Of a stretch of 64,000 nt of DNA, positions 3,225-62,116 are shown piece by piece. The DNA is from Candidatus Latescibacterota bacterium. GTDB taxonomy: Bacteria; Latescibacterota; CBDCVA01. A program made the position numbers and the translations under genes. The DNA lies in NCBI GenBank assembly GCA_965222935.1, contig CBDCVA010000002.1:1035442-1099441 (forward strand), given 5' to 3'. Position 1 is the stretch's first letter. Each line of letters starts with the position of its first letter. The notes under the pieces are model-generated. The model made no database searches, was not told the DNA's origin, and worked only from the letters and a program-made list of their open reading frames with translations.

Positions 3225-3991
3225 CGGACCCGCTTCGGAAAACGAATGATGTTGTAGACCAGCATGTAGGGCAGGGACAAGGGACTCGCATACCGCGGCG
3301 CGCGCATATCGGGACGCCACGACCAGTAGAGGATCATCGCTCTGCCCTTAACGAAACGCATGTGTAGCTCGCCCCAGTAACGCGAGTCGCGCGAGTTGTC
3401 CCGATTATCCCCCATCATGAACAGATGCTCGGGGCGAATCGTGATCGGGCCGAAGTTGTCACGTGGACTGTCAGCCAAACCGAAGACACGGGCATCGGTA
3501 TATTTCACCTTCGGGGGATTGAGGAACGGTTGTCCGTCCACGTATAGCCTCTTGTCGCGGATCTCCACTGTCTGCCCCTCGACGGCCACGCACCGCTTGA
3601 TGAAGTCCTTGGAGGAATCTTCAGGGTAGGCGAAAATCATGATGTCGCCTGGCTGCATGTCGCGCAGGCCCGGCAGCCGCCCATCGGTGAAGGGGATTTT
3701 GGGACCGTACAGGAACTTGTTCGCCAGAAGGAAATCACCGACCAGGAGCGTGTCCTCCATCGAGCCCGAAGGGATGCGGAACGCCTGCACAATGAAGTGG
3801 CGGATGCCCAGCGCCAATAACAGCGCGACCCCGATCGCCTCGATGTACTCGCGCAGATGCGACTTCGGGCGGCGCGGCGTCTCCGTCTGCGCGCGAGCCT
3901 CGACTTCGGGGACGACTCGGCTCTCGCGCCGCAGCATACGAAGGGCACCGTTCCAAAGACGGCGCGTTCCCGCCGTGACCGCCCCCATCAT
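3194..3991 (-). CDS. lepB: signal peptidase I
   Basis: Motifs IPSGSMEDTLLVGDFLL and MMGDNRDNSRDSRYWG (S26 catalytic Ser/Lys regions). Start placed at the ATG at 3989-3991, 2 nt after the lepA stop; the longer ORF-track version (to 4123) would overlap lepA. Confidence 0.9.
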   Translation of the reverse strand: MMGAVTAGTRRLWNGALRMLRRESRVVPEVEARAQTETPRRPKSHLREYIEAIGVALLLALGIRHFIVQAFRIPSGSMEDTLLVGDFLLANKFLYGPKIPFTDGRLPGLRDMQPGDIMIFAYPEDSSKDFIKRCVAVEGQTVEIRDKRLYVDGQPFLNPPKVKYTDARVFGLADSPRDNFGPITIRPEHLFMMGDNRDNSRDSRYWGELHMRFVKGRAMILYWSWRPDMRAPRYASPLSLPYMLVYNIIRFPKRVRWERLADIIR

Positions 3992-3993
3992 CC

Positions 3994-5832
3994 CTAAGTC
4001 CCTAGCACGGCCAGGAAGGCTTCCTGAGGTATTTCGACGGTGCCGACCAGCTTGAGCCGTTTTCGGCCTTCCTTCTGCCGCTCGAGGAGCTTGCGCTTGC
4101 GGGTAATGTCCCCGCCGTAGCACTTGGCCGTCACGTTCTTGCGCAAGGGAGAGATGGTCTCACGTGCGATCACCTTGCTGCCCAACGCACCCTGGATGAT
4201 GACGGGGAAAAGCTGGCGCGGGATCTCCTGCCGCAGCTTCTGGCAAAGCACCAGCGCCCGCTCCCGCGCCCTATCGCGGTGCAAGATAACGCTCAGGGCA
4301 TCCACGGGCTCACCGTTGAGTAAAATGTCGAGCTTCTGAACGGCCGCCGTACGATGTGCCAGGTACTCGTAGTCGAAGGAAGCATAGCCCCGCGTGGCCG
4401 ACTTCAACTTGTCATAGAAATCGTAGACGATCTCGGCGAGCGGGACCTCGCAGACGAAGCTAACGCGCTTGGCGCCTATCGCATGCGTCCCCGTTACCTG
4501 GCCGCGCCGATTGTGCACGAGCCTCATCACATTTCCCAAGTATTCGGAGGGCGTGATCAACTCCAGCGTAAGCCACGGCTCTTCGATCCGCTCAATCAGA
4601 GCCGGGTTAGGAAATTTGGCGGGATTGTCCACCATCACGACCTCGCCCCCACGCAGAACGGCGCGATACGCCACTGACGGCGCCGTGGTGATGATCTCCA
4701 TGCCGAACTCCCGAGCCAGCCGCTCCTGCACGATCTCTCTGTGTAAGAGACCCAGAAACCCGCACCGGAAGCCGAACCCCAGCGCCTGCGAGGTCTCCGG
4801 TCCGTAGGTGAACGCCCAGTCGTTCAGCCTCAGCCGTTCCAGCGCCGCCTTCAATTCGTCGTACTCGTCGGGATCAACGGGGTAGAGCCCCGCGAAGACC
4901 ATAGGTTTGACCTCGCGGTAGCCTGGAAGCGCCGCACTTGCGGGCGTTCCACCATCGGTCAAGGTATCGCCGACGCGCGCCTCGGTCACCTCCTTCACCC
5001 CAGCGATGACGTAGCCCACGTCGCCCGCGACGAGCGCCGCAGTCGGCGTCTTTTGCCCGAAGGTCAACAGCCCGACCTCCTGGACCTCCCGCACCTGCCC
5101 CGTGGACATATAGAGCGCCTGCATGCCTCGCCGCAACGTCCCGTCCACCACCCGCACGTAAGCGACCGTTCCCCGGTAGGCATCGAAGAAGGCATCGAAG
5201 ATCAATGCCCGCAGCGGCGCCGACGGGTCCCCACCGGGTGGCGGAACTCGCTCGACGATGGCTTCCAGGACCTCCCGCGTCCCCAGACCCTCCTTGGCGC
5301 TCGCTCGGATCACCTCGCGCGGATCGATGCCGACGAGACCGCCGATCTCCTCGGCCGCGGCATCCGGCTGTGCGTGAGAGAGGTCCACCTTGTTGACGAC
5401 CGGGATGAGAGCCAGTTCGTGCTCCAGCGCCAGGAGCACGTTCGAGACCGTCTGCGCCTCCACGCCCTGCGAGGCATCTACGAGCAAGAGTGCTCCCTCG
5501 CACGCGGCTAGACTTCGGCTCACCTCGTAGGTAAAATCCACATGGCCCGGAGTATCGATCAGGTTGAGGACGTACTCCGCGCCGTCCGGCGCGCTGTAGA
5601 CCATGCGCACCGGGTGCGATTTGATCGTGATCCCCCGCTCCCGTTCCAGGTCCATGGCATCGAGGACCTGCTTGACCATCTTGCTGGGCGCCACGCTGCC
5701 GGTGGCCTCCAAGAGCCGATCAGCGAGGGTGGATTTGCCATGATCGATGTGCGCAATGATACAGAAATTACGCAAGCTGGCGGCCTTGGGAACACCAAGC
5801 TGCGCAAGGGCTTGTTCAGTCGCAAGACTCAC
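3994..5832 (-). CDS. lepA: elongation factor 4 (translational GTPase LepA)
   Basis: 612-aa ORF with GTPase P-loop [23 protein letters not shown] and NKVD; conserved lepA-lepB gene order. Confidence 0.95.
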
Positions 5833-5994
5833 GAGTACCTCAAAGTTGGGAAAATAGGCTCAACGCTCGGTCCGGTCAAATGGCTCCAACGCTGTTGAGC
5901 ACACTGAGAGAAATCCCAGGGTTTCCACCCGCGAGGACGTCTTTCAATGTATGGGAGAATCCATGTCCAGAACGCCGCGATCGCACGGTGCTCC

Positions 5995-8061
5995 CTAAGG
6001 ACGCATGTGCCGCCGAAGTTGCTGCAAGTTTTGCCGCGCGTTGATGTGGCCAGGGGCTACCTCGACCGCTTTCTGCCAGTACTCTCGCGCGCGTATCAAA
6101 TCCCCCATCTGCGCATAGGCCACCCCCAGCGCGTTGTAGCCCGAGGCAAACGCCGGATCGCTCCGAACGCTCCGCATGTACCACGAAAGCGCCTCCTCCA
6201 TTCGCCCCTGCTCCAAGGCCACCTCGCCTCGGCCATAGAGGGCCCGAACGAAGAAGGGATCGACCTCCAGCGCCCGCTCGAACGCCGCCGCCGAGCGGTC
6301 CAGGTCGCCATGCAACAGATGCGTTCTCCCCAGGTTGTATTGCACGCTCACGGCGCCAGCAGCCACGTTGGCGACGCGCGCGTAAACCGAATCGGCGGCG
6401 GCTTTCGCACCACGGCTATACAGGGCCTCTGCCCGCGCGAAGGTGTAGTGAGCCAGGATGCGCTCGAGCCACAGGTCCTGCCCCCAGCCCGCCGCGATGA
6501 AGGAATCGGGGTCCGAAAGCCGCCACTGCACCGCCAGATCGCCCGAGTTGGCCGAATCGGCATCCGGAACGATTCGGTAGGTCAACCCGTAAGGCTCCCA
6601 CCGGTATCCGGGGATGCCCCACTGGTTCTCCCCCCGCACGTCGAAGACGGGCCGCCCTCGTCGCAGAAGTCGCTCCTCCGCTAGCGCCATTCGCCGAGCC
6701 CGAGGGGCCTTTTGGAGCCGCGACAGGTCCTTCCCGTAGACGCCCGGCGAGAGGTGTCCACCACGGCAGGAGAGCTGTACGTCCGGCCGCCGCCCCTCGA
6801 TGAGATGGAGGTAGCACAGGATGAAAGTCGCGTCGTCTCCCTCGGCCAGGAGCGCAGCGCCTCGCGGCAGAGGTCCCAGGATGTCCAGCCCATAGCGGTA
6901 GGCGAGCCAGTTGTCGTGCAGGTCCACAGCCTGCCAGTTGGCCGCAAGCGGCACAGCCGGAAGAATGAACGCCAAAGCCCAACCCCATCCGCGCGCCACC
7001 GCCACGCGCCTCCAGGCTCCTAGCCGCCGGCCCACTCCAGCCAACCCGAAGCCGATCCACAGCGCCGCCACGAGGAAGGTCGGCATGTAGAAGACGTGGA
7101 TGTCGGTGATATCGTAATTGACCGCGTAGAGCAGATTCACGGCGGCGATCATCACGAGCGGACCGGCCAGAGGCCGCGCTAGATGGAAGCTCTCTATGAG
7201 GCCCAGCACCACGAAGGGGAGTGATAGCAGCGTCCCCTGCTCGACCAGGATCGCCGCGAAGCGTCCCAGGTTGCGAATAATGGCACCCAGCGGCATCTGT
7301 CCAAGGAAGTGGCGGTACTGCTGAGCGGTGATGTGATCCCAGAAATCGCCCATCGTGCGCAAGGGCACCCACTGGATCGCAGGCCCGAGCTCCGCGCGCA
7401 CCCACAGGCTCAGATAGGGTGATAACCCCACTAGCCCGAGGCCAATCCCCCAGGCCAGCCACCAGGGTCGCTCCCGCACCCAGGAGCGCTTCAACCAGAG
7501 CACCCACGCGAGCGCAGGCCAGATCAGGACGACCGTCAAGTGGTGCGCGAGCCCAAGACCCATCACGTAGGTCAATCCGAAGAAGGCCCGCCCGTCCCCA
7601 CAGAACCATCGGGCGGCCAGAAGCAGCGTCGCGGCCAGAAGCGCCACGTGCAGCGTGTAGACCTCGGCCGTCACGGCCTGCGACCAGAAGGTCCCCGACC
7701 AAGCGAGCCACAGGGCGCCTGCCAACGCCGAGGGCCGAGGCAAGGCGAGAGTGCGGCCGCATAGATAGACGAGAGCGCACGCCCAGGCGCCGCATAGCGC
7801 CGTGAAGAAGTTGACCCTCATCGGGACGGAAAGCCACGGTGTGAGCAACGAGACGGCGCGCCCGGCCAGGACGAACAACGGATAGCCCGGTGGATGCGCG
7901 ATACCAGCGGTGTGCACCGCCGCGATCAACTCCCCCGAGCCGACGACATGAACGGTCGGAGAAAGCGTGGCGAGGAAGGCCGCCAGGGAGAGTGTCCCCG
8001 CAGTCAGCGCGAGGGCGGCATCGCCCCGGGCGAGGGGCACCGAAGCGAAGGGCATGGGCAT
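5995..8061 (-). CDS. polytopic membrane protein, DUF2723/TMEM260-like (glycosyltransferase family 39-like) with C-terminal TPR repeats
   Basis: N-terminal AHPPGYPLFVLAGRA motif and many hydrophobic spans; C-terminal TPR-like repeats (...LGRTHLLHGDLDRSAAAFERALEVDP...). Start placed at the internal Met (MPMPF) to avoid overlapping the upstream gene. Confidence 0.6.
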   Translation of the reverse strand: MPMPFASVPLARGDAALALTAGTLSLAAFLATLSPTVHVVGSGELIAAVHTAGIAHPPGYPLFVLAGRAVSLLTPWLSVPMRVNFFTALCGAWACALVYLCGRTLALPRPSALAGALWLAWSGTFWSQAVTAEVYTLHVALLAATLLLAARWFCGDGRAFFGLTYVMGLGLAHHLTVVLIWPALAWVLWLKRSWVRERPWWLAWGIGLGLVGLSPYLSLWVRAELGPAIQWVPLRTMGDFWDHITAQQYRHFLGQMPLGAIIRNLGRFAAILVEQGTLLSLPFVVLGLIESFHLARPLAGPLVMIAAVNLLYAVNYDITDIHVFYMPTFLVAALWIGFGLAGVGRRLGAWRRVAVARGWGWALAFILPAVPLAANWQAVDLHDNWLAYRYGLDILGPLPRGAALLAEGDDATFILCYLHLIEGRRPDVQLSCRGGHLSPGVYGKDLSRLQKAPRARRMALAEERLLRRGRPVFDVRGENQWGIPGYRWEPYGLTYRIVPDADSANSGDLAVQWRLSDPDSFIAAGWGQDLWLERILAHYTFARAEALYSRGAKAAADSVYARVANVAAGAVSVQYNLGRTHLLHGDLDRSAAAFERALEVDPFFVRALYGRGEVALEQGRMEEALSWYMRSVRSDPAFASGYNALGVAYAQMGDLIRAREYWQKAVEVAPGHINARQNLQQLRRHMRP

Positions 8062-21123: not shown

Positions 21124-21295
21124 CTCTTGCTCCCCTCCCTGCATGTGCCAGCGGAGCTTCCGCTGCCAGCGGAGCTTCCGCCGGGGAGGGGTCGGGGGTG
21201 GGGTCTCTTTAGGGTGGGGTTAGTGTCACTTTTTCAGCACTGACTTTTGCCCCAAAAATGACGATCTTCCCCCTCGCGCCCGAAGAGAGCAGCGA
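21124..21295. repeat. composite intergenic repeat: A element (GC-rich structured palindrome) plus B element (conserved gene-proximal ~75-bp motif), copy 1
   Basis: A: ctcccctccctgcatgtgccagcggagcttccgctgccagcggagcttccgccggggagggg...gggtgggg. B: ggttagtgtcac-N7-cagcactgactt...aaaatgacgatcttccc...gagagcagc, ending about 20 nt before the ATG at 21316. Confidence 0.85.
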
Positions 21296-22186: not shown

Positions 22187-23161
22187 ATGGGATCGTCCCA
22201 GGCCATGATCGTCGATGCGCACGTCCACATCTTCCCCGAGGTCCGGGGCCTGGTGGGCGCTGGTCCCACGCGCGGTCTGGGCTATGGCCGTATCGCCATT
22301 GGCGACGGGGAGATGCAACTGCTCCCGCCCTATGGCGAGAAAACCGTCTTCACGGCTGAAATGCTCCTCGCGAACATGGATTGGGCCGGAGTGGACAAGG
22401 CGGTCATGCTCCAGGGGCCGTTCTACGGAGCGTGCAATCCGTACGTGCTGGAGGCCCAAAGCCGTCATCCCGAGCGTCTATTGGGCGCCGCTTTCCTCGA
22501 TCCGTGGGCCCCCGACAATCGCACAGCCTTCGACGCCATCGCCGCTTCATCCGGCTTTCGGGCGGTCAAACTCGAGTGTTCCGTGTCGGCCGGACTGTGC
22601 GGCATCCACCCCGAGGCCAGGCTCGATGCGCCCGAGATCGCCTGGCTGTGGGCCGAGCTCGAAGAGCGCGGATGGGTCCTGGTCCTCGATCTGGGTGCCG
22701 TGGGCAGTCGCTCCTATCAGACGAGCGCCGTGCGCGCCATCGCCGAAGAGCATCCCGGCCTCCGGATCGTCGTAGCGCATCTGGGCCAACCGACCCCCCA
22801 GGCGGAGGCCGACCCGGCCCTGTGGCGTCTGTGGCTCGATCAGATCGATCTTGGCCGTCTGCCCAACGTGTGGTTTGACACGGCCGCTCTTCCGCACTAC
22901 GTGCCGGACGAGGACTACCCCTACCCCAGCGCGGGACGGTACTTGCGCCTGGCTGCCGAACGCATCGGCCCGGCCAAGATCATGTGGGGCACGGATCAGC
23001 CGGGGCTTCTCGGTTACGCGAACTATCCGCAACTGGTGAAGCTGGCCGCCTTGCACACCGGGTTTCTGTCATCCGATGAACGAGCCCTCATTCTCGGTGG
23101 AAACGCCCTGCACGTTTACCGCTGGTCGTCGCGTTCAGTGATTCGCGAGGGGAAAGATTGA
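22187..23161 (+). CDS. amidohydrolase-2 family metal-dependent hydrolase (TIM barrel)
   Basis: MIVDAHVHIF start, ...VVAHLGQP..., ...WGTDQP... typical of PF04909-type amidohydrolases. Confidence 0.7.
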   Translation: MGSSQAMIVDAHVHIFPEVRGLVGAGPTRGLGYGRIAIGDGEMQLLPPYGEKTVFTAEMLLANMDWAGVDKAVMLQGPFYGACNPYVLEAQSRHPERLLGAAFLDPWAPDNRTAFDAIAASSGFRAVKLECSVSAGLCGIHPEARLDAPEIAWLWAELEERGWVLVLDLGAVGSRSYQTSAVRAIAEEHPGLRIVVAHLGQPTPQAEADPALWRLWLDQIDLGRLPNVWFDTAALPHYVPDEDYPYPSAGRYLRLAAERIGPAKIMWGTDQPGLLGYANYPQLVKLAALHTGFLSSDERALILGGNALHVYRWSSRSVIREGKD

Positions 23162-23239
23162 GCGCCCCTGAGCCTCGGGAATCCCGGCTTCGTTCCCTGC
23201 GCATCCGGGCCAACCGCCCCCCAGGCGGAGGCCGACCTT

Positions 23240-23504
23240 ACTCCCCTCCCTGCAAGCGGGGAGGGGCTGGGGGTGGGGTTCTCTTGCTCCCCTCCCTGCA
23301 TGTGCCAGCGGAGCTTCCGCTGCCAGCGGAGCTTCCGCCGGGGAGGGGGTTAGTGTCACGAATCTAGCACTGACTTAGCCCCTCCGATGCATTATCTTCC
23401 CACCCGTGATGACCGAGAGCGCTTGGACACAGCAAGAGGAGGCCTTCGCCACCGCCTTGGCCGATGGGCTGACCGAAGCCGAATCCGCCCAGGCGGCCGG
23501 CTGC
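23240..23504. repeat. composite repeat: A element (tandem short and full copies) plus long B element carrying a truncated TerS-like ORF start
   Basis: A at 23240-23349; B (ggttagtgtcacgaatctagcactgactt...attatcttcccacccGTGATGACCGAGAGC...) continues as MTESAWTQQEEAFATALADGLTEAESAQAAGC and then diverges. Preceded at 23199-23238 by a 40-bp copy of amidohydrolase gene sequence 22776-22815. Confidence 0.8.
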
Positions 23505-23579: not shown

Positions 23580-24200
23580 CTACCGCAGGAACGCCGCCTT
23601 GACCGCCCTCCACGTGGCCGCTTCCACCGCCACCGAGTCGTTTTGGTTTTCCCCATCGGGTCCAATGATGGGCGCGCCCGAAGTTACCAGCGCTTCGATT
23701 TCTTCGAGCTGTTCGAGCAGGGACAGGTTGGGATCGACCTCCACCCAGTGGCCGGTGCTGATCTTCGCGAAATAGCCGGTGTGCGGAATCAACGGATCCG
23801 GCACGATCAGCGCCCCATCCACAACGCGGTAGAAATACCCGCCTATCTGTGATAGGTTAGCACCGACCTTGATGCGGACATCCGTGCCGCCTGGACCTTC
23901 TCCCATGAGAGTAGTCCCGCCGTGGAAGTCGAGTTGATCCCAGCCGCCCAAGGCTTCTGCAATGGCCTTGAGCTCGTCGAACCTGCCTGCAACGTTGTCG
24001 GGATCGATCTCCACTTCGTCGCCGGACGTCGTGCCGATCGTGACCCCCGTGAAAGAGGGGTCGGAGCGGTCTATCTCCACAAGTTGGCCGTCCACAAGGC
24101 GGAAGAGACGCCCTTCTGCACTGCTGGAACCCACCGTGAAAACGAGCAATACAGCGGCCAGAACGCAGGCCCCAAGACAAAAAACGGAGCGCTTTGACAT
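23580..24200 (-). CDS. hypothetical secreted protein with two internally repeated halves
   Basis: Signal peptide MSKRSVFCLGACVLAAVLLVF; two related segments (FRLVDGQLVEIDRSD...EIDPDN... and YRVVDGALIVPDP...WVEVDPN...). Confidence 0.5.
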   Translation of the reverse strand: MSKRSVFCLGACVLAAVLLVFTVGSSSAEGRLFRLVDGQLVEIDRSDPSFTGVTIGTTSGDEVEIDPDNVAGRFDELKAIAEALGGWDQLDFHGGTTLMGEGPGGTDVRIKVGANLSQIGGYFYRVVDGALIVPDPLIPHTGYFAKISTGHWVEVDPNLSLLEQLEEIEALVTSGAPIIGPDGENQNDSVAVEAATWRAVKAAFLR

Positions 24201-24837: not shown

Positions 24838-24993
24838 TGTAGTGTCACACATCCAGCACTGACTTGGCCCCTCCAATGTATTATCTTTCCACCCGTGATG
24901 ACCGAGAGCACTTGGATACCGCAGGAGAAGGCCTTCGCCACCGCCTTGGCCAATGGGCTGACCGAAGCCGAATCCGCTCAAGCGGCCGGCTGC
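24838..24993. repeat. long B element (copy 3), including the 5' end of the TerS-like ORF
   Basis: gtagtgtcacacatccagcactgacttggcccctccaatgtattatctttccacccGTGATGACCGAGAGC...; near-identical to copy 2 over about 150 bp. Confidence 0.8.
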
Positions 24994-25398
24994 ACCCCCG
25001 AAGCCGCCTTGCAACTCTTGAGCGACGCGACTTTCCGCACCCATCTGGACGCGCTCACGCTACAGCGGTGCCGCGCGGCGCGCGCCGAAGCCTTGAGAGT
25101 CGCCCGGCGCAAGCTGCGCGAAGCGATGAACGCCCCCTCGAAGAAGGACCCGCTCGACTGGGTCAAGCTCGTGTGGACGCTATCCAACGACGTCGCCGCC
25201 GGAGATCCCTTCCCCCCTCCTCACGCGGGGCCTTCCTTTATCTCCCCTCCCTGCCTGCCCGCGGAGCTTCCGCCGCCCGCGGAGCTTCCGCCGGGGAGGG
25301 GGTTAGGGGGTGGAGTTAGTGTCACTCATCCAGCACTGACTTTCATCCCGAAAATGACGATCTTACCACTCGCGCCCGATGAGAGCAGCCGCCGATGA
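24898..25398 (+). CDS. small HTH protein resembling the N-terminal DNA-binding domain of phage terminase small subunit (TerS-like); C-terminus reads through repeat elements
   Basis: MTESTWIPQEKAFATALANGLTEAESAQAAGCTPEAALQLLSDATFRTHLDAL... has the spacing of TerS/HTH N-termini. The reading frame continues through the A3/B4 repeat to a stop at 25396-25398, so the 3' part is probably not native coding sequence. Confidence 0.3.
   Translation: MTESTWIPQEKAFATALANGLTEAESAQAAGCTPEAALQLLSDATFRTHLDALTLQRCRAARAEALRVARRKLREAMNAPSKKDPLDWVKLVWTLSNDVAAGDPFPPPHAGPSFISPPCLPAELPPPAELPPGRGLGGGVSVTHPALTFIPKMTILPLAPDESSRR
25241..25392. repeat. composite repeat: A element plus short B element (copy 4) upstream of the ADH gene
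   Basis: ctcccctccctgcctgcccgcggagcttccgccgcccgcggagcttccgccggggaggggg, then agttagtgtcactcatccagcactgactttcatcccgaaaatgacgatcttaccactcgcgcccgatgagagcagc; ADH ATG at 25421. Confidence 0.85.
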
Positions 25399-30940: not shown

Positions 30941-31186
30941 ACGTGCGGGTAACGCCATGCCACGATCCTTTCGTCTTTACCGCCGCTCCGGTGCATCACC
31001 ATCCACACCAACATCATCGACGCCGCAGCAATCCGAAGGGTCCTATACTATACCCCCTCTATCCGAAGGAGGCACACTTTTTCACGCCGGGCTACTTTTC
31101 ACGCCGGGCTACCCGCCCAGAGGCGCACCGCCGGCGGTCTCCGCCCGGCGTGTGGATCGACACCGGCTGGCCTCGGGGTAGGGTTT

Positions 31187-32332: not shown

Positions 32333-32385
32333 AGCTCCCTCTCCAGCATCTGCGAGTTCATGCGCGTCCCTTCCCTTCTATGGAG

Positions 32386-32575
32386 AAACCCCACCCCCGG
32401 CTCCTCGTTCGGCGCGGGTGGGAAGATCGTCATTTTCGGGGTGAAAGTCAGTGCTGGATTGGTGACACTAACCCCACCCCCGGCCCCTCCCCGCATGCAG
32501 GGAGGGGAGCAAGATCAAGTTCAAAGGCAACGGGAACGTGCAGAGGGGCCACACATGCAGGGAGGGGAGTAAGAG
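32386..32575. repeat. composite repeat: short B element (reverse orientation, copy 5) flanked by A-element fragments, upstream of the enolase-superfamily gene
   Basis: Reverse complement of 32401-32473 = ggttagtgtcaccaatccagcactgactttcaccccgaaaatgacgatcttcccacccgcgcc...; A-like aaccccacccccggcccctccccgcatgcagggaggggag at 32471-32510 and again near 32550. Confidence 0.85.
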
Positions 32576-32623: not shown

Positions 32624-33421
32624 TCAGTACGGCAACAGTCCGCCGGATGCGTTATAGGTCTGGCCGGTGACATAGCTCGCGTCCGACGACGCCAGAAAAG
32701 CGACGACGTTGGCGACGTCCTCCGGCTTCTGAATGCGCCCCAACGGTACGCTCGCGACCGCCCGCGCCTTCACCGAACCCACCGGCGCGCCCTCCAGTTT
32801 GGCGATCTCGCGGTCGATCAACTCCCACATCGGGGTGTCCACGATCCCGGCGCACACGCAGTTGACGAGAATGCCGTGCGACGACAGCTCCAGGCCCATC
32901 TGCCTGGTCAGCCCGACGACGGCGTGCTTGCTGGCAGCATACGCGCCCAGCGGCACGCCCTTGCCGGGCGCGATCTTGCCCGCACCGGAGGCGTTGTTGA
33001 TGATCCGGCCGCCCTCGCCCTGGGCGATCATCCGCCGCGCCGCCGCCTGCGAGCAGAGAAACACTCCCTTGGCGTTCACGTCCATCAGCCGGTCCCAGAC
33101 CGCTTCGTCGGTATCCAACAGCGGCGCGACGGCTCCAATACCCGCGTTGTTGACCAGGATGTCAAGCCGACCGAATCGCGCCGCAGCCGCGCGAACCATT
33201 CCCTCAGCATCGTCTTTGTGCGTCACGTCCACCCTGAGGGGGAGGGCCACGCCGCCAGCCGCACCTATCTCCCCGGCCACCTCCACCGCGTTTCCCTCGT
33301 CGATATCCGCGACGGCCACGCTCGCACCTTCGCGGGCCAGCCTGAGCGCGATGGCCCGCCCGATTCCGCGTCCGCCGCCCGTCACGATGGCGGCCTGTCC
33401 CTCCAGATCGTACCTTGGCAC
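32624..33421 (-). CDS. short-chain dehydrogenase/reductase (SDR)
   Basis: TGGGRGIGRAIA cofactor motif, NNAG, catalytic YAASK; GTG start at 33419-33421. Confidence 0.85.
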   Translation of the reverse strand: MPRYDLEGQAAIVTGGGRGIGRAIALRLAREGASVAVADIDEGNAVEVAGEIGAAGGVALPLRVDVTHKDDAEGMVRAAAARFGRLDILVNNAGIGAVAPLLDTDEAVWDRLMDVNAKGVFLCSQAAARRMIAQGEGGRIINNASGAGKIAPGKGVPLGAYAASKHAVVGLTRQMGLELSSHGILVNCVCAGIVDTPMWELIDREIAKLEGAPVGSVKARAVASVPLGRIQKPEDVANVVAFLASSDASYVTGQTYNASGGLLPY

Positions 33422-33445
33422 CGTCGCTTTCCCTCGCCCGTCTAG

Positions 33446-33732
33446 TGCGCCGTCCCACGAATACCCTGGAGAAACCCCACCCCCCTACCCCCTCCCCGGC
33501 GGAAGCTCCGCTGGCGCAAGCAGGGAAAGGGCAAAAGAGGGAACCCCGCCAGCCAGTGGGGAGGGGGGCGCCCACAAGAGGCGCCCCTACGACTGGGCTC
33601 ACTCCGCCCGCGCGGGGACAGGCGCCTTGCAGGTCGAGTGCCTCGGTACCACGATCCGCACCACAAACCCCACCCCCGGCCCCTCCCCGCATGCAGGGAG
33701 GGGAGCAAGATTGTGGCGTCTGCGGCCTGCCC
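33446..33732. repeat. A-element cluster (two A copies) inserted between the VOC and SDR genes, flanked by ~57-bp direct repeats of the SDR 5' end
   Basis: A-type sequences at about 33470-33510 and 33665-33710. Direct repeats 33388-33445 and 33720-33776 (gcggcctg...ccagatcgtaccttggcaccgtcgctttccctcgcccg(t/c)ctag) duplicate the SDR start region. Confidence 0.8.
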
Positions 33733-33773
33733 GTCCAGATCGTACCTTGGCACCGTCGCTTTCCCTCGCCCGC

Positions 33774-34298
33774 CTAGCCCCTCGGCTCCCTAGTCTCGAC
33801 CGGGGTCTCCATGAACTCGAGGACGTATCCATCGGGGTCCTTGAAGAAGGCGACGCGCACGATGCCCCATTCGAGATCGAAGCTGACCGGCTCGGACACG
33901 AACTCGACCCCCCTGGCACTCAGATCCCGATAGGCCGCCCGGATGTCCGGGACGCCGAAGCAGATGTGCGAGTGGCCGACATCGCCCAGTTCGGCATCCG
34001 AGACCCCGCCTTCGGGCGCGTGGTACTGTTGCAGATCGATCTCGATTCCCGGTGTCCCGGGGGCCACGATCCGCACCACGTCCATCACGACGTTGGGCTT
34101 GCCGGCCATCTTCGAGATGGTCTCGCCTTCGAGGCGGTGCCGCTCCACCTCCTTCAGTCCAAGGAGACCGCAGTAGAACGCCAGCGAGCGGTCCATATCG
34201 CTCACCGTGACCGAGACGTGGTCCAGGATGCTGACGGCGTCGTTCATGGTGACCTCCGGGTGTGTGGGCTCCACCAGAGCAGCGGCTCCTTCCTCCAT
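33774..34298 (-). CDS. VOC-family protein (glyoxalase/bleomycin-resistance/dioxygenase fold)
   Basis: ...ILDHVSVTVSDMDRSLAFYCGLLGL... and ...HICFGVPDIRAAYRDLSARGVEF... beta-alpha-beta-beta-beta modules; the internal Met at 34247 is an alternative start. Confidence 0.7.
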   Translation of the reverse strand: MEEGAAALVEPTHPEVTMNDAVSILDHVSVTVSDMDRSLAFYCGLLGLKEVERHRLEGETISKMAGKPNVVMDVVRIVAPGTPGIEIDLQQYHAPEGGVSDAELGDVGHSHICFGVPDIRAAYRDLSARGVEFVSEPVSFDLEWGIVRVAFFKDPDGYVLEFMETPVETREPRG

Positions 34299-34319: not shown

Positions 34320-34535
34320 TCCAACCGCGCGGGTGGGAAGATCGTCAATATCGGGGTGAAAGTCAGTGCTGGAAAAGTGACACTAAGTGAACCCCGGCCC
34401 TAAAGAAACCCCACCCCCGACCCCTCCCCGGCGGAAGCTCCGCTGGCACATGCAGGGAGGGGAGTAAAGACAAGAGCCTGCGTCCACGTTCAGAGGCCGA
34501 ACCCTCCCCGGGTGCAGGGAGGGGAGAAGGGCAAG
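34320..34535. repeat. composite repeat: short B element (reverse, copy 6) plus A element, upstream of the VOC gene
   Basis: Reverse complement of 34320-34390 = tcacttagtgtcacttttccagcactgactttcaccccgatattgacgatcttcccacccgcgcgg...; A: aaccccacccccgacccctccccggcggaagctccgctggcacatgcagggaggggag. Confidence 0.85.
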
Positions 34536-59346: not shown

Positions 59347-60381
59347 ATGAAAGCTGTCGTCAAATATGGCTACGGCCCTGGCAAGGTGGAACTCAGGGAC
59401 ACGCCGGAGCCCGAGGTCGGGCCGGGGCTGGTGAAGCTTCGCGTGAAGGCGGCGGGGATCTGCGGGAGCGATTTACACGCCTATCACGAGATGATCAAGT
59501 TCAACTTCAAGTACCCGGTGATCGTCGGCCACGAATTCGCCGGCGACGTGACCGAGGTTGGTGAGGGCGTCGAGGGCATCGAGGTCGGCGAGCGGGTGAC
59601 GAGCGAGACGACGGCCATCAACTGCGGCGTCTGCGAGTACTGCCGCACCGGCTACTACAATATGTGCCTGAGCCGGTCCGTCGTCGGCTACGACTGGGAT
59701 GGCGGGTTCACCAGCTACTGCGTCGTGCCCCAGAAGAACATCCACAAGCTCCCCGAGAACGTGGACTACATCGCCGGTGCGCTCACCGAGCCCTTGGCCT
59801 GCTGCATCCACGGCGTCACCGAGCAGACGGGCATCAACGCGGGCGATCTCGTCCTGATCGTCGGCCCCGGGCCGATTGGGCTTTTGACCCTTCAGGTCGC
59901 CCTAGCCGAGGGCGGGCAAATCGTCATCTGCGGGACAAGCCAGGATGCGGGGCGACTTAAGATCGCCGAGGATCTGGGCGCCGATTATGCCCTGAACGTC
60001 GAGGAGACCGACGTCGTCAAGTTTGTGGGGGACCTCACCGGCGGCTACGGGGCCGACATCGTCCTCGAATGCTCCGGCGCCGAGAAGGGCGCACAACTGG
60101 GCATCGAGGCCGCCCGCAAGCGCGGCAAGTACACGCAGATGGGCCTCTTCGGCAAGCCCATCACCCTTGATTTCGAGCGCATCGCTTACAAGGAGCTTCA
60201 AGTGACCGGCTTTCTCTCGCAGAAGCGGAGCGCCTGGCAGCGCGCGCTCAAGCTCGAAGCGCAGGGCAAGATCAGTCCCAGCAAAGTCGTCAGCCACCAG
60301 GTGCCGATAGACGAGTGGAAGCGCGGCTACGAAATGAGCGAGAACAAGGAAGCGCTCAAAGCGATCATCATCCCCGAATAG
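59347..60381 (+). CDS. zinc-dependent alcohol/polyol dehydrogenase (MDR superfamily)
   Basis: CGSDLHAYH, GHEFAG, CGVCEYCRTG, LIVGPGPIGLL; the 3' end is duplicated at 62045-62116. Confidence 0.85.
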   Translation: MKAVVKYGYGPGKVELRDTPEPEVGPGLVKLRVKAAGICGSDLHAYHEMIKFNFKYPVIVGHEFAGDVTEVGEGVEGIEVGERVTSETTAINCGVCEYCRTGYYNMCLSRSVVGYDWDGGFTSYCVVPQKNIHKLPENVDYIAGALTEPLACCIHGVTEQTGINAGDLVLIVGPGPIGLLTLQVALAEGGQIVICGTSQDAGRLKIAEDLGADYALNVEETDVVKFVGDLTGGYGADIVLECSGAEKGAQLGIEAARKRGKYTQMGLFGKPITLDFERIAYKELQVTGFLSQKRSAWQRALKLEAQGKISPSKVVSHQVPIDEWKRGYEMSENKEALKAIIIPE

Positions 60382-60384
60382 CCG
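60313..60384. repeat. left copy of a ~72-bp direct repeat (3' end of the ADH gene) flanking the methyltransferase insert
   Basis: gagtggaagcgcggctacgaaatgagcgagaacaaggaagcgctcaaagcgatcatcatccccgaatagcc recurs at 62045-62116 with one 1-nt indel and one substitution. Confidence 0.85.
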
Positions 60385-60391
60385 GATACGT

Positions 60392-61402
60392 ATGTGCCCA
60401 CGTTACTCTGAAGGAATTTCTCCTTCACAATTGCCGATCCCCACTGAGGCGTTTACGGCTAAACCGGGTGATAGCACCTTAAGGCGCGCGGCGTTCGACG
60501 CAAAAGCGGCCTCCGGCAAGCACGTCATATACAACGTTGACGCTTTCGCATGGCTATCCGAGCAGCCATCGAACTCGGTTCAAGCGGTTGTGACTGATCC
60601 GCCGTACGGCCTCCTTGAATATCGACCCGAGGAACTCGAGAAAATGAAGCATGGCCGGGGAGGCGTCTGGCGCATCCCGCCGAGCTTCGATGGCGCCAAG
60701 CGCAGGCCGCTGCCCAGGTTCACTGTGCTAAGAGACCAGGATAAGGCTGAGCTTGAGGCGTTTTTCAGGCGATTCTCAGAGGCACTTCTACCGGTTCTTG
60801 TGCCTGGAGCCCACGTTTTCGTTGCGACGAACCCGCTTGTCTCGTATCTGGTCTACGGGCCTTTCATTGAGAACGGATTCGAGCCGCGCGGTGAGATCAT
60901 CCGGGTTGTTCAACGGCTACGGGGAGGCGACAGGCCCAAAAACGCCCACAAGGAATTCGCTGGGGTAACGGTCCTACCGAAGTCTTGCTGGGAGCCTTGG
61001 GGATTGTTCCGCAAGCCGTGCGAGGGTCGTGTCCAGGACAACCTGCGTGAGTGGAAAACAGGAGGATTGCGGCGCATCTCGCCAGAGGAGCCTTTCAAGG
61101 ACCTGATAGAGTCGTCTCCGACCAGACGTACCGAGTTCTCGATAGCTCCGCACCCGTCCCTGAAACCACAGCGCTTCATGCGCAAACTCGTCAGGGCCGC
61201 TCTGCCTCTAGGTGAGGGGATCATCCTTGATCCCTTCATGGGGTCGGGTTCTACAATCGCGGCGGCGGCGGCTGAGGGGGTACAGAGCGTCGGCCTGGAG
61301 ATTAGCCCGGAGTACTTTCACCTGGCAGTTGAGGCCATACCGAAGCTGGCGGCGCTTGAAGTGTCGGAGCAGAACCGCAACGGCACGAACTCAGGACTTT
61401 AA
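60392..61402 (+). CDS. DNA methyltransferase, N6-adenine/N4-cytosine type (beta-class motif order)
   Basis: Catalytic DPPY (...AVVTDPPYGL...) precedes the SAM-binding FxGxG motif (ILDPFMGSGST); visibly lower G+C. Confidence 0.8.
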   Translation: MCPRYSEGISPSQLPIPTEAFTAKPGDSTLRRAAFDAKAASGKHVIYNVDAFAWLSEQPSNSVQAVVTDPPYGLLEYRPEELEKMKHGRGGVWRIPPSFDGAKRRPLPRFTVLRDQDKAELEAFFRRFSEALLPVLVPGAHVFVATNPLVSYLVYGPFIENGFEPRGEIIRVVQRLRGGDRPKNAHKEFAGVTVLPKSCWEPWGLFRKPCEGRVQDNLREWKTGGLRRISPEEPFKDLIESSPTRRTEFSIAPHPSLKPQRFMRKLVRAALPLGEGIILDPFMGSGSTIAAAAAEGVQSVGLEISPEYFHLAVEAIPKLAALEVSEQNRNGTNSGL

Positions 61403-61508
61403 CCCAAGTGTACCGCTGCCCCCTATACTTAGAATCCGGGCCATTCGTTCGTCGATCGAATACATCGAGCGCGAGTTGAACGAACTTGTCGACATATACT
61501 TTGAACAG

Positions 61509-62000
61509 ATGAATGTTTTTAGTGCCCTGGTGGGGATATTTGGGACTCGTGCCCTTGACCAACACAGCGTCTATGAGAAAGTCAGGCATACAGACATTGC
61601 CCAAACCCGATTTCCAGACCTCCGACGCAAGGGAAGTGGACTAAACCCACGGCCAAGTGAATGCCTGGAGTCCAAGGCGAGCAAGAGGCCCTGGCAACTT
61701 CAGTCGCACTACGACCACGAAGGATGGTACATTGTCTGGCGCTACCTGGTAGATGCAACGGCTTCAATTGAGTTGGAGAAGCACGTGATTGTATGGCGCG
61801 TCGATGTGGCCTACTTACGAGGTGAGGACTGGAAGTACGAAGGCAGCAGGGCTGGAATTGCCGGGGGCGGTCGCACGCATACCTTTGGCCTCAAGCAGCC
61901 AGCGAAGAGACTCCAGGGGTGTGCTGTCTATCGCCGCTCGGACATTGTGCTCTCTGGAGGCAAGCCCGTTCCGGCCAACAGCCACAACCATGCTCAGTGA
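61509..62000 (+). CDS. hypothetical protein; candidate cognate restriction endonuclease of the adjacent methyltransferase
   Basis: ORF directly downstream of the methyltransferase, same strand, same low-GC insert; weak PD-(D/E)xK-like segment YLVDATASIELEKH; start uncertain (TTG at 61476 or ATG at 61509). Confidence 0.3.
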   Translation: MNVFSALVGIFGTRALDQHSVYEKVRHTDIAQTRFPDLRRKGSGLNPRPSECLESKASKRPWQLQSHYDHEGWYIVWRYLVDATASIELEKHVIVWRVDVAYLRGEDWKYEGSRAGIAGGGRTHTFGLKQPAKRLQGCAVYRRSDIVLSGGKPVPANSHNHAQ

Positions 62001-62044
62001 CGCCGGGACCACGATATGTCTCAAAAGAAAAAGCGTGAGGGCAC

Positions 62045-62116
62045 GAGTTGGAAGCGCGGCTACGAGATGAGCGAGAACAAGGAAGCGCTCAAAGCGATCA
62101 TCATCCCCGAATAGCC
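62045..62116. repeat. right copy of the ~72-bp direct repeat (ADH 3'-end copy)
   Basis: gagttggaagcgcggctacgagatgagcgagaacaaggaagcgctcaaagcgatcatcatccccgaatagcc. Confidence 0.85.

Follow-up and report, generated by a model that had tools for sequence, protein, structure and literature searches.

[quoted passage not shown] With a probability of roughly 0.55, the insertion and its long duplication arose through an error of replication or repair, not through the action of a transposase or an integrase. The features that bear on this reading are collected in Table 1, where positions are those of the window, that is, the whole 64-kb stretch of DNA that was analysed. The VOC and SDR proteins of the window are identical to P0368 and P0362, respectively.

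Table 1. Features of the VOC-SDR boundary (in the direction of transcription) and of the amidohydrolase locus
Feature	Position	Strand	Basis or remark
VOC/glyoxalase-family gene, 157 aa, intact	33774..34247	-	ORF; homologues with Pfam Glyoxalase and Glyoxalase_4
Segment matching copy 1 of the ancestral 141-nt duplication	33722..33862	-	95.7% to copy 2 of L006 (3982-4122)
Direct repeat copy 1, VOC-proximal	33722..33777	-	VOC stop TAG (33776-33774), spacer with ribosome-binding site, pseudo-start GTG
12-nt leader AGACGCCACAAT at the left junction	33710..33721	-	identical in the window and L006
H1 element	33665..33709	-	element-family comparison, hairpin fold, G-quadruplex-type motif
16-nt patch adjoining the H1 3' end	33649..33664	-	equals VOC-internal 34064-34079
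112-nt segment	33537..33648	-	no match in the window or related loci
H2 element, 5' arm degenerate	33464..33536	-	3' arm GGGGAGGGGGTAGGGGGGTGGGGTTT
18 nt (TATTCGTGGGACGGCGCA)	33446..33463	-	at the place of the 85-nt duplicated VOC tail of L006
Direct repeat copy 2, SDR-proximal	33390..33445	-	relic TAG, spacer with ribosome-binding site, true SDR start GTG (33421-33419)
SDR gene, 265 aa, intact	32624..33421	-	
103-codon ORF from the pseudo-start of copy 1 through the whole insert to the relic TAG of copy 2	33442..33753	-	
Source segment of the second duplication, within the Amidohydro_2 gene (22187..23161)	22775..22814	+	
39-nt filler copy, fitted exactly between native 3' flank and H1 element (23241)	23199..23237	+	

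The two copies of the direct repeat are identical at 53 of 56 positions, without gaps (blastn E=1.8e-18), and are separated by 276 nt (33446-33721). The initial annotation had recognised the pair, as repeats of ~57 bp at 33388-33445 and 33720-33776; pairwise alignment moves its limits by 2 nt, to 33390-33445 and 33722-33777. On the - strand, the repeat is composed of CTAG, which includes the VOC stop TAG, a 21-nt spacer that contains GAGGGAAAG and a ribosome-binding site, GTG and 30 nt of SDR coding sequence, so that the first 33 nt of SDR are part of it. Both copies therefore hold the SDR start region together with the VOC stop, as had been claimed; in copy 1, the pseudo-start GTG is followed by 30 nt of SDR-like sequence with the variant GAC GGG. 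Since VOC stop, ribosome-binding site and SDR start all lie within the repeat, neither gene was damaged and the allele could persist. The 56-nt repeat has just two copies in the 64-kb window (blastn). Apart from element copies and paralogous genes, the window holds only four local (within 1 kb) exact direct repeats of at least 16 nt, namely, the VOC-SDR pair, the amidohydrolase pair, the 16-nt patch with its VOC-internal counterpart, and a 17-nt tandem at 31079; with so few repeats of this kind, the VOC-SDR and amidohydrolase pairs are not chance matches.

Two further states of the locus were found in closely related strains, with flanking genes 95-99% identical among the three allele-bearing strains (L005, L006 and that of the window). 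Strain L005 (VOC 97% and SDR 98% identical) has the exact empty site, VOC-TAG, 21 nt and GTG-SDR, with a single repeat copy at 6472-6530. The more distant L007 (76%-related) also has the empty VOC-SDR arrangement, and in Caldilineaceae, Gemmatimonadota and Opitutales genomes VOC lies directly upstream of SDR, with short spacers; among the SDR relatives at 82-83% identity (L002-L004), the VOC neighbour is lost. The single repeat copy of L005 and the adjacent genes of L007 and of the GTDB loci bear out the initial proposal that VOC and SDR once adjoined each other. Strain L006 carries one 78-nt element between 141-nt repeats (136/141 identical), which is an earlier state of the locus; a single insertion of ~290 bp, as first envisaged, is contradicted by this allele and by the 276 nt measured for the insert of the window.

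The counterpart of the 141-nt segment in the window starts directly after the CA of CATCGTG at 33864 and comprises the last 85 nt of VOC, TAG, the 21-nt spacer and the first 33 nt of SDR. The window and L006 have exactly the same left junction, ...CAGGCCGC|AGACGCCACAATCTTGCTCCCC, and both also carry GACGGG in copy 1 and the variant GGGGGTAGGGGGG in the 3' arm of H2; the 3' arm of H2 in the window is thus of the variant found in the single H2 of L006. These shared features point to one ancestral event in the two lineages, and the comparison of the alleles indicates one old event followed by remodelling in the window lineage. The 78-nt insert of L006 begins with AGACGCCACAAT and ends with GGGGTTTG, with the 3' arm GGGGGTAGGGGGGTGGGGTTTG; apart from its internal hairpin, it lacks terminal inverted repeats.

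The insert of the window is a mosaic. Its H1 element consists of a short hairpin, CTCCCCTCCC..GGGGAGGGG, and the G-rich tail GGGGAGGGGCCGGGGGTGGGG. In alignment, the sequence following the 16-nt patch is not derived from VOC, and an origin of the 112-nt segment by decay of VOC sequence, implying an ancestral repeat of ~357 nt, was rejected (alignment score 15.5, compared to a shuffle mean of 15.7). The right flank of the insert is common to a third assembly, L001, where a flank resembling the 18-nt segment occurs; positions 33446-33484 show weak similarity (77%) to the end of the neighbouring cluster at 32361-32398. The 103-codon ORF, which ends 21 nt before the SDR start, possibly arose by chance (the chance probability is estimated at about 0.05). 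Its interpretation as preserved translational coupling was rejected, given that by this estimate the ORF is compatible with chance in a GC-rich strand and that its L006 equivalent stops inside the element.

The breakpoints in the target can be read from the empty allele, GGGGCA|TCGTGCGCG and CAGGCCGC|CATCGTGACGG. The heptamer CATCGTG is found at both, 143 nt apart, at 6384 and 6527 in L005 and at 33864 and 33389 on the - strand of the window, where the second occurrence (33389-33383) directly follows repeat copy 2. An identical 7-mer at a given register has a background frequency of 1.4e-4. CATCGTG at both breakpoints is the signature of microhomology-mediated tandem duplication, and this 7-nt microhomology points to an origin in replication or repair rather than to an element-encoded enzyme. 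The junction is not a clean microhomology product: it lacks the CA of CATCGTG and has the 78-nt element in place of the CA. The microhomology between insert and target is weak: on the left it amounts to GCCGC, an assignment made solely by analogy with the 21113 copy, and on the right to TGGGG, followed by TTTG rather than CA.

The H elements are short GC-rich imperfect palindromes that occupy intergenic regions in mosaic clusters of the modules H1, H2 and P and are strongly polymorphic between close strains, with fast turnover. The 18-nt internal unit of H2 is repeated one, two or three times across copies and strains, a variation that shows slippage within the elements. All seven strict G-quadruplex-type motifs of the window fall within H 3' arms. 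Fold prediction yields hairpins for the H arms, with energies no better than those of shuffled sequence, because composition alone forces the pairing of C-runs with G-runs. G-quadruplex and hairpin structures are plausible obstacles to replication. As short, imperfect, GC-rich extragenic palindromes in mosaic clusters, the H elements resemble REP/BIME/REPIN, but they carry a G-run of four tracts in the 3' arm and are joined to a promoter-proximal P module.

Rfam holds no family for the H elements, and the promoter and terminator scan yielded nothing relevant. The exact element patterns had no match in GTDB genomes or JGI metagenomes, the scan with the repeat core was empty as well, and neither the window nor the public scans yielded a donor for the 78-nt insert, a copy with the leader AGACGCCACAAT and the end GGGGTTTG. 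The H2 pattern is absent from IMG/VR; a shorter 3'-arm motif occurs there in 25 stretches, all of them preceded by a C-rich 5' arm and none of them flanked by long repeats. None of the eight further element clusters of the window has a flanking repeat. Nor is there one at the 260-nt composite that lies ~500 nt off, between SGL and VOC, and is missing in L005 and L006. The H family makes no target duplications as a rule, and because the other H insertions are without flanking repeats, there is no support for a staggered cut by a transposase or for an integrase site.

The initial annotation had described a similar duplication at the amidohydrolase gene. The copy beside the element is real (40 against 39 nt, 38 matches, one 1-nt gap; blastn E=8e-10), but the structure is a different one. 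The 39-nt copy lies 37 nt past the Amidohydro_2 stop codon and three nucleotides (TTA) before the CTCCCCTCCC core of the element at 23241; it is absent in strain L008, in which the native flank is conserved up to 23197. It is a one-sided templated filler at the element junction that brackets nothing. An extended copy of 63 nt, representing a decayed gene duplicate, was ruled out, as 23181-23197 is native flank in L008. Templated patches are thus found exactly at element ends, one of 16 nt from 415 nt away and one of 39 nt from 424 nt away.

We propose that, in the ancestor of the window and L006, a 143-bp segment extending from 85 nt before the VOC stop to SDR codon 11 was duplicated head to tail. 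The duplication would have formed between the two CATCGTG microhomologies, with a 78-nt copy of the dispersed hairpin/G-rich repeat H2 taken up at the junction so created. Most likely this would have come about by serial template switching of the nascent strand, which would have come off its template at SDR +33, copied an H2 at some other site and resumed 141 nt further back. Duplication and capture may have been one event; the alleles fit duplication followed by insertion equally well. The window lineage would later have gained H1, the 16-nt VOC-internal patch and 112 nt of DNA and lost the 85-nt VOC tail of copy 2, in an order that we infer, and these gains and this loss would account for a 56-nt repeat around a 276-nt insert. 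An error of this kind at another element junction may also have left the amidohydrolase filler as a side product. Of the two mechanisms suggested in the initial annotation, replication-based insertion is the one favoured; site-specific insertion is disfavoured, as no integrase is present among the 17 window ORFs scanned and the repeat does not recur at other element sites. The remark that the duplications are atypically long for classic target-site duplications holds for the VOC-SDR repeat, which is indeed unlike one.

FoSTeS and MMBIR are template-switching models, and long-distance template switching at microhomologies was reportedly put forward by Slack et al. in 2006 as a model for bacterial duplications. 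The VOC-SDR event resembles microhomology-mediated tandem duplication in its contiguous head-to-tail segment, the 7-nt breakpoint microhomology and the patches templated from nearby sequence at junctions; it differs in the 78-nt element at the junction, in the weak microhomology between insert and target, and in being an event read from sequences.

Among the alternatives, a succession of two events, a plain CATCGTG tandem duplication of the 143-bp segment and a later H2 insertion at its junction, is unlikely, although CATCGTG at both target breakpoints is exactly what a simple tandem duplication requires and H elements turn over quickly among these strains. The element lies no more than 2 nt from the junction, which would be a coincidence of an estimated ~2%, given ~120-140 nt of non-functional duplicate tolerant of insertion, and no element-free duplicated allele was found among the three strains read (L005, L006 and the window). 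Somewhat less likely again is homology-facilitated illegitimate recombination, whereby a fragment from a foreign strain (VOC, spacer, SDR(1-33) and H2), homologous on the VOC side, would have been joined illegitimately 85 nt before the recipient VOC stop, duplicating the boundary. It draws on the allelic disparity of the two L006 copies, of which copy 2 has a VOC tail of the window type (GAG..GGG) and copy 1 one of the L005 type (CAG..GCG), a mismatch for which later recombination or a different origin is needed. The copy-1 pseudo-start, moreover, encodes DLDGQ, the real SDR N-terminus of another strain (P0364), and the population is recombining, with the mosaic VOC C-termini QTREPSG, QTREPRG and ETREPRG all represented. 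The joint between H2 and SDR(+33) would nevertheless still need an illegitimate event, so that a step is added and none replaced; the lineage-specific TTGTC is present in both L006 copies, later gene conversion can give allele differences, and distant relatives have either E or D at this place in SDR.

Insertion of a non-autonomous element by a transposase, with a very long staggered cut as in IS1549/IS1634, is improbable. These elements of the IS1634 family provide a published precedent for long, variable target duplications, with direct repeats of 8-514 bp and no accepted mechanism (PMC2266710), and the insertion here resembles theirs in the direct repeats of tens to hundreds of bp around it. 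Transposases are also known from the lineage, as a truncated IS1595 at 41208..41810 (the only transposase among the 17 window ORFs scanned, with none in the insert), an IS1595 in L008, and DDE_Tnp_1/_1_4 genes in the 83%-related L003 and L004. However, IS1549 and IS1634 are 1.5-2 kb long and encode their own transposase, whereas the insert here has no such gene or IS end, and other H copies, unlike insertions of those elements, have no target duplication at all. Unlike a DDE transposon or MITE, the 78-nt insert lacks terminal inverted repeats, its internal hairpin aside, and other H copies do not show a constant short duplication; a staggered cut would not be expected at matching 7-mers, and the one-sided 16- and 39-nt fillers are not transposition products. 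Attachment-site duplications of 40-150 bp are known, and a direct repeat pair around foreign DNA is their expected footprint. The VOC-SDR repeats would fit this footprint as attL and attR (discussed in PMC2853133), and yet the remnant of a site-specific integration, from which the integrated element has since been almost wholly deleted, is very improbable: the 17 window ORFs scanned include no integrase, the window has no tRNA and no other repeat copy, the earliest state seen holds only 78 nt of dispersed repeat, the breakpoint microhomology lies within the target itself, and a full integrative element lies between the repeats in none of the three strains. The least probable explanation is a collapsed or mis-joined repeat in the assembly; repeats abound in the region and the short-read contig L001 breaks off close by, but the copies differ at 3 of 56 positions, the same left junction recurs in an independent assembly from another sample (L006) and the right flank in L001, and VOC and SDR are intact and in frame.

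[quoted passage not shown] The repeats often span translation starts or stops, which leaves the target genes intact (Furuta et al. 2010, PMC2853133). Lim et al. 2012 considered the process 'not yet' recognised for short DNAs and described a 21-nt insert of unknown origin (PMC3457768). The VOC-SDR locus shares with this class direct repeats of more than 30 bp that adjoin the insert (56 nt in the window, 141 nt in L006), a related genome (L005) with an empty site and one copy, an insert without integrase or transposase, a repeat not dispersed within the 64-kb window, variable repeat length, and a spanned stop and start with survival of the target genes. Unlike the published inserts, which are restriction-modification or other genes of 1-20 kb, the one here is a 78-nt non-coding repeat. 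The insert carries no gene in either state (78-276 nt, non-coding), and a gene unit is typical of the class, not defining, short DNA being allowed for (PMC3457768). In distinction from the published cases, both the origin of the insert, as a member of an element family, and the microhomology in the target are visible here.

Elsewhere in the window, the Type II methyltransferase island at 60384-62042 is flanked by a 74-nt repeat, in which the 3' end of the Zn-ADH gene is duplicated together with its stop, and is a textbook insertion with long target duplication. Overall, the 64-kb window contains one further clear insertion of this structure and two possible ones (repeats of 74, 154 and 44 nt), which makes these strains suitable for a systematic test of the mechanism.

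The VOC-SDR locus is unusually readable, with the empty, early (78-nt insert, 141-nt repeat) and remodelled states all represented in one species-level population, and it demonstrates that a compact operon boundary can take up foreign DNA with neither gene lost. As a tentative and rather doubtful extension, H elements may spread without a transposase, when replication stalls, the template is switched, the element is copied to a new site and a target of variable length is duplicated, and the same host process may underlie all such insertions in the lineage, including the methyltransferase island. If this is true, insertion with long target duplication would gain the mechanism it has lacked, in stalling and template switching at H elements.

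The genes for a VOC/glyoxalase-family protein (VOC) and a short-chain dehydrogenase (SDR) are separated by an insert that is bracketed by direct repeats, as reported in the initial annotation. The two copies, each 56 nt long, align without gaps with 53 of 56 positions identical (blastn E=1.8e-18), and 276 nt lie between them. On the coding strand, a copy consists of CTAG, which includes the VOC stop codon TAG, a 21-nt spacer with the ribosome-binding site GAGGGAAAG, GTG, and 30 nt of SDR coding sequence; the working VOC stop codon comes from the VOC-proximal copy 1, and the working SDR start codon from the SDR-proximal copy 2. With element copies and paralogous genes set aside, the window contains just four local exact direct repeats of at least 16 nt, namely, the VOC-SDR pair, an amidohydrolase pair, a 16-nt patch in the VOC-SDR insert, and a perfect intergenic tandem duplication of 17 nt (TTTTCACGCCGGGCTAC twice) between a luciferase-like gene and an MR_MLE gene, so that the first two pairs are not chance matches. 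An open reading frame of 103 codons begins at the duplicated SDR pseudo-start, spans the whole insert and ends at the relic VOC stop, 21 nt ahead of the true SDR start, reproducing the ancestral stop-to-start spacing. This frame may be a chance product because its counterpart in L006, a related contig, terminates within the element.

Coordinates of the features in the window
Feature	Position	Strand	Remark
Amidohydro_2 gene	22187..23161		
Duplicated amidohydrolase segment	22775-22814		within the gene
Copy of this segment	23199-23237		
P modules	21215-21293, 23347-23400, 24840-24900, 25306-25389		
P modules	32400-32479, 34327-34400	-	
H 3' arms with strict G-run motif	21183, 23258, 32472, 33475, 33668, 34409, 35493		
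154-nt repeat	23351-23504, 24840-24993		90% identical
206-aa gene	23580..24200		opposite to small ORF
17-nt tandem duplication	31079-31112		
SDR gene	32624..33421	-	GTG start
56-nt repeat, copy 2	33390-33445		
103-codon ORF	33442-33753	-	
H1 acquired by window	33665-33709		
56-nt repeat, copy 1	33722-33777		
VOC gene	33774..34247	-	
VOC-internal segment	34064-34079		identical to 16-nt patch in insert
18-nt segment of insert			at position of L006's duplicated 85-nt VOC tail
44-nt repeat	39378-39421, 43859-43902		
GHL10 copies, 1.9 kb	39449-41352, 41959-43862		95% identical
IS1595 transposase gene, truncated	41208..41810	-	
Ankyrin-repeat protein gene	43766-45031		
Zn-ADH gene	59347..60381		
74-nt repeat	60311-60383, 62043-62116		97% identical
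Insert between 74-nt repeats	60384-62042		
Type II DNA methyltransferase gene	60392..61402		

Protein searches yielded three assemblies in which the DNA of the flanking genes is ~95-99% identical to the window. In one of these relatives, L005 (ENA ERZ25067264), VOC is followed by SDR with a single repeat copy (...gagccgagcggcTAGacgggcgagggaaagcgacgGTGccaaggtacgatctggagggacaggccgccatcg...), and the site is also empty in L007 (VOC identity 76%); the former adjacency of the two genes, inferred initially, is thus proven. Given that named genomes of Caldilineaceae, Gemmatimonadota and Opitutales likewise lack the insertion and have a short spacer between VOC and the SDR gene immediately downstream, adjacency is ancestral. 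The closest orthologs of SDR and VOC (70-78%; L009-L027) come from metagenome-assembled genomes of Chloroflexota, Caldilineaceae, Bryobacterales, Poribacteria, Gemmatimonadota and Opitutales, a mix that is typical of sponge-associated consortia and that suggests movement of the gene pair between phyla. The species of the window has no close representative in GTDB.

L006 (ENA ERZ25072076, also in NCBI) represents an intermediate state, with the order VOC, TAG, spacer, SDR(1-33), a 78-nt insert (AGACGCCACAAT, one H2 hairpin element and TTTG), the last 85 nt of VOC, TAG, spacer and full SDR. Its repeat is 141 nt long (3763-3903 versus 3982-4122, 136/141 identical). Three features are common to the window and L006, namely, a left junction that agrees to the base, GACGGG as the variant in copy 1, and the unusual variant GGGGGTAGGGGGG in the 3' arm of H2; both alleles thus descend from one event, after which the window lineage would have acquired H1, the 16-nt patch, 112 nt and 18 nt. 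Derivation of the 112-nt segment from a decayed VOC gene was rejected upon alignment. Hence, instead of the single ~290-bp insertion envisaged originally, 78 nt were inserted earlier, together with duplication of 141 nt, and remodeling followed. An assembly artefact is excluded because the left junction recurs in L006 and the window-type right flank in a third assembly, L001 (JGI metagenome, SDR 98% identical). In L006, moreover, an island of ~2.1 kb (4890-7100) separates SDR from the MR_MLE gene; it encodes an N6_N4 DNA methyltransferase (5227-6657), has 17-nt inverted repeats GTAGTGGGTCAGTTTGA / TCAAACTGACCCACTAC at its bounds, and is inserted inside an H element.

The inserted element belongs to a modular repeat family that forms nine clusters in the window. 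H1 is a short hairpin, CTTGCTCCCCTCCCTGCATGCGGGGAGGGGCCGGGGGTGGGGTT; H2 has H1-type arms that enclose one to three 18-nt units, GCCAGCGGAGCTTCCGCT. The P module, of ~75 nt, reads TTAGTGTCAC..CAGCACTGACTT..AAAATGACGATCTTCCC, or TTAGTGTCAC-N6-AGCACTGACTT..AAAATGACGATCTTCCC, and matches neither the sigma-70 consensus nor any Rfam family; all six copies point toward a gene start at most ~80 nt away, mostly downstream of an H element, so that P resembles a mobile cassette that supplies a promoter or leader. The H 3' arm, GGGGAGGGGNCGGGGGTGGGG, contains four G-tracts, and all seven strict four-tract motifs in the 64-kb window (at least four G, four times, loops of up to 3) fall within such arms. Pairing of a 3' arm with its C-rich 5' counterpart is possible and, in principle, so is formation of a G-quadruplex. 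The arms fold into hairpins, yet no better than shuffled sequence, because base composition forces their pairing. An Rfam search matched no family to the elements, and their exact patterns were not found in GTDB genomes or JGI metagenomes. The 3'-arm-type motif GGGGAGGGGNCGGGGGTGGGGTT was found in 25 stretches of IMG/VR viral contigs (L089-L113; GC 0.53-0.70), in every case with a CTCCCCTC(T/C)CC arm 8-30 nt upstream and in none with long flanking repeats, which indicates that the hairpin-plus-G-tail design is widespread well outside the lineage of the window. Among strains, H elements vary in unit number, internal deletions and swapped modules.

The target breakpoints in the empty allele, GGGGCA/TCGTGCGCG and CAGGCCGC/CATCGTGACGG, are 143 nt apart and both carry the 7-mer CATCGTG. 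In this window, the background frequency with which a 7-mer is identical at a given register is 1.4e-4. A 7-mer shared in this way is the signature of microhomology-mediated tandem duplication. A transposase making a long staggered cut would not be expected to cut at matching 7-mers, nor do other element copies carry a target duplication: the other eight clusters, as well as a 260-nt H-H2-P composite located between SGL and VOC and absent from L005 and L006, lack a flanking repeat. As a rule, the family leaves its target unduplicated, and the site-specific insertion considered initially is rejected on these grounds. The other alternatives are duplication first with insertion later, recombination with foreign DNA, and an att remnant.

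Element ends are abutted exactly by short patches from nearby, a 16-nt VOC piece and a 39-nt amidohydrolase piece; together with the strain differences among H elements, these look like signs of copying errors. Combined with the breakpoint microhomology and the repeat-free state of the other elements, such signs lead us to favor serial template switching during replication or break repair, so that the replication-based origin also proposed initially is the best-supported reading. The nascent strand would quit its template at SDR +33, copy an H2 located elsewhere and rejoin the template 141 nt behind, with selection retaining just those products in which both genes survive. The weak points of template switching are that a donor copy of the 78-nt insert was not found, insert-target microhomology is poor, the junction lacks the CA of CATCGTG, and the L006 copies differ in their VOC-tail alleles.

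The amidohydrolase duplication, initially considered similar, is a real copy (38 matches, one 1-nt gap) that stops 3 nt short of an element core. The piece sits precisely at the end of the homology with the related locus L008 and is absent from it; rather than forming a second bracket, the copy is a related by-product. The amidohydrolase itself has 324 aa, compared to ~308 aa in most homologs, due to ~6 extra N-terminal residues and a lineage-specific C-terminal tail of ~8 extra residues following ..ALHVY.

[quoted passage not shown] A 2012 study by this group reported 270-nt duplicates flanking 21-nt DNA of unknown origin, a process "not yet" recognised with short DNAs, and put forward tandem duplication combined with recombination as the alternative (PMC3457768). 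IS1549 and IS1634 are flanked by unexplained repeats of 8-514 bp (PMC2266710).

Classed from the window sequence alone, three further segments appear to be of this type. The textbook case is a 74-nt repeat derived from the end of the Zn-ADH gene, including its final ~70 nt and its stop codon, around a 1.66-kb insert of low GC (0.58) encoding the methyltransferase (PADLOC MTase_II E=2.7e-111; Pfam N6_N4_Mtase) and a second ORF. Possible cases are a 154-nt repeat, comprising a P module and ~100 nt from the start of a small ORF (MTES.W..QE.AFATALA.GLTEAESAQAAGC), around 1,335 nt with a 206-aa gene, the product of which has an apparent N-terminal signal sequence and no Pfam or PADLOC match; and a 44-nt direct repeat enclosing the whole GHL10/IS1595 segment, in which the truncated transposase gene separates two copies with one GHL10-family gene each.

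The VOC-SDR locus has the structure named by Kobayashi's group but differs from the published cases in three respects: a non-coding dispersed repeat of 78 nt was inserted, three allelic states have been preserved, and microhomology is visible in the target. The VOC-SDR insertion belongs to this known, mechanistically open class.
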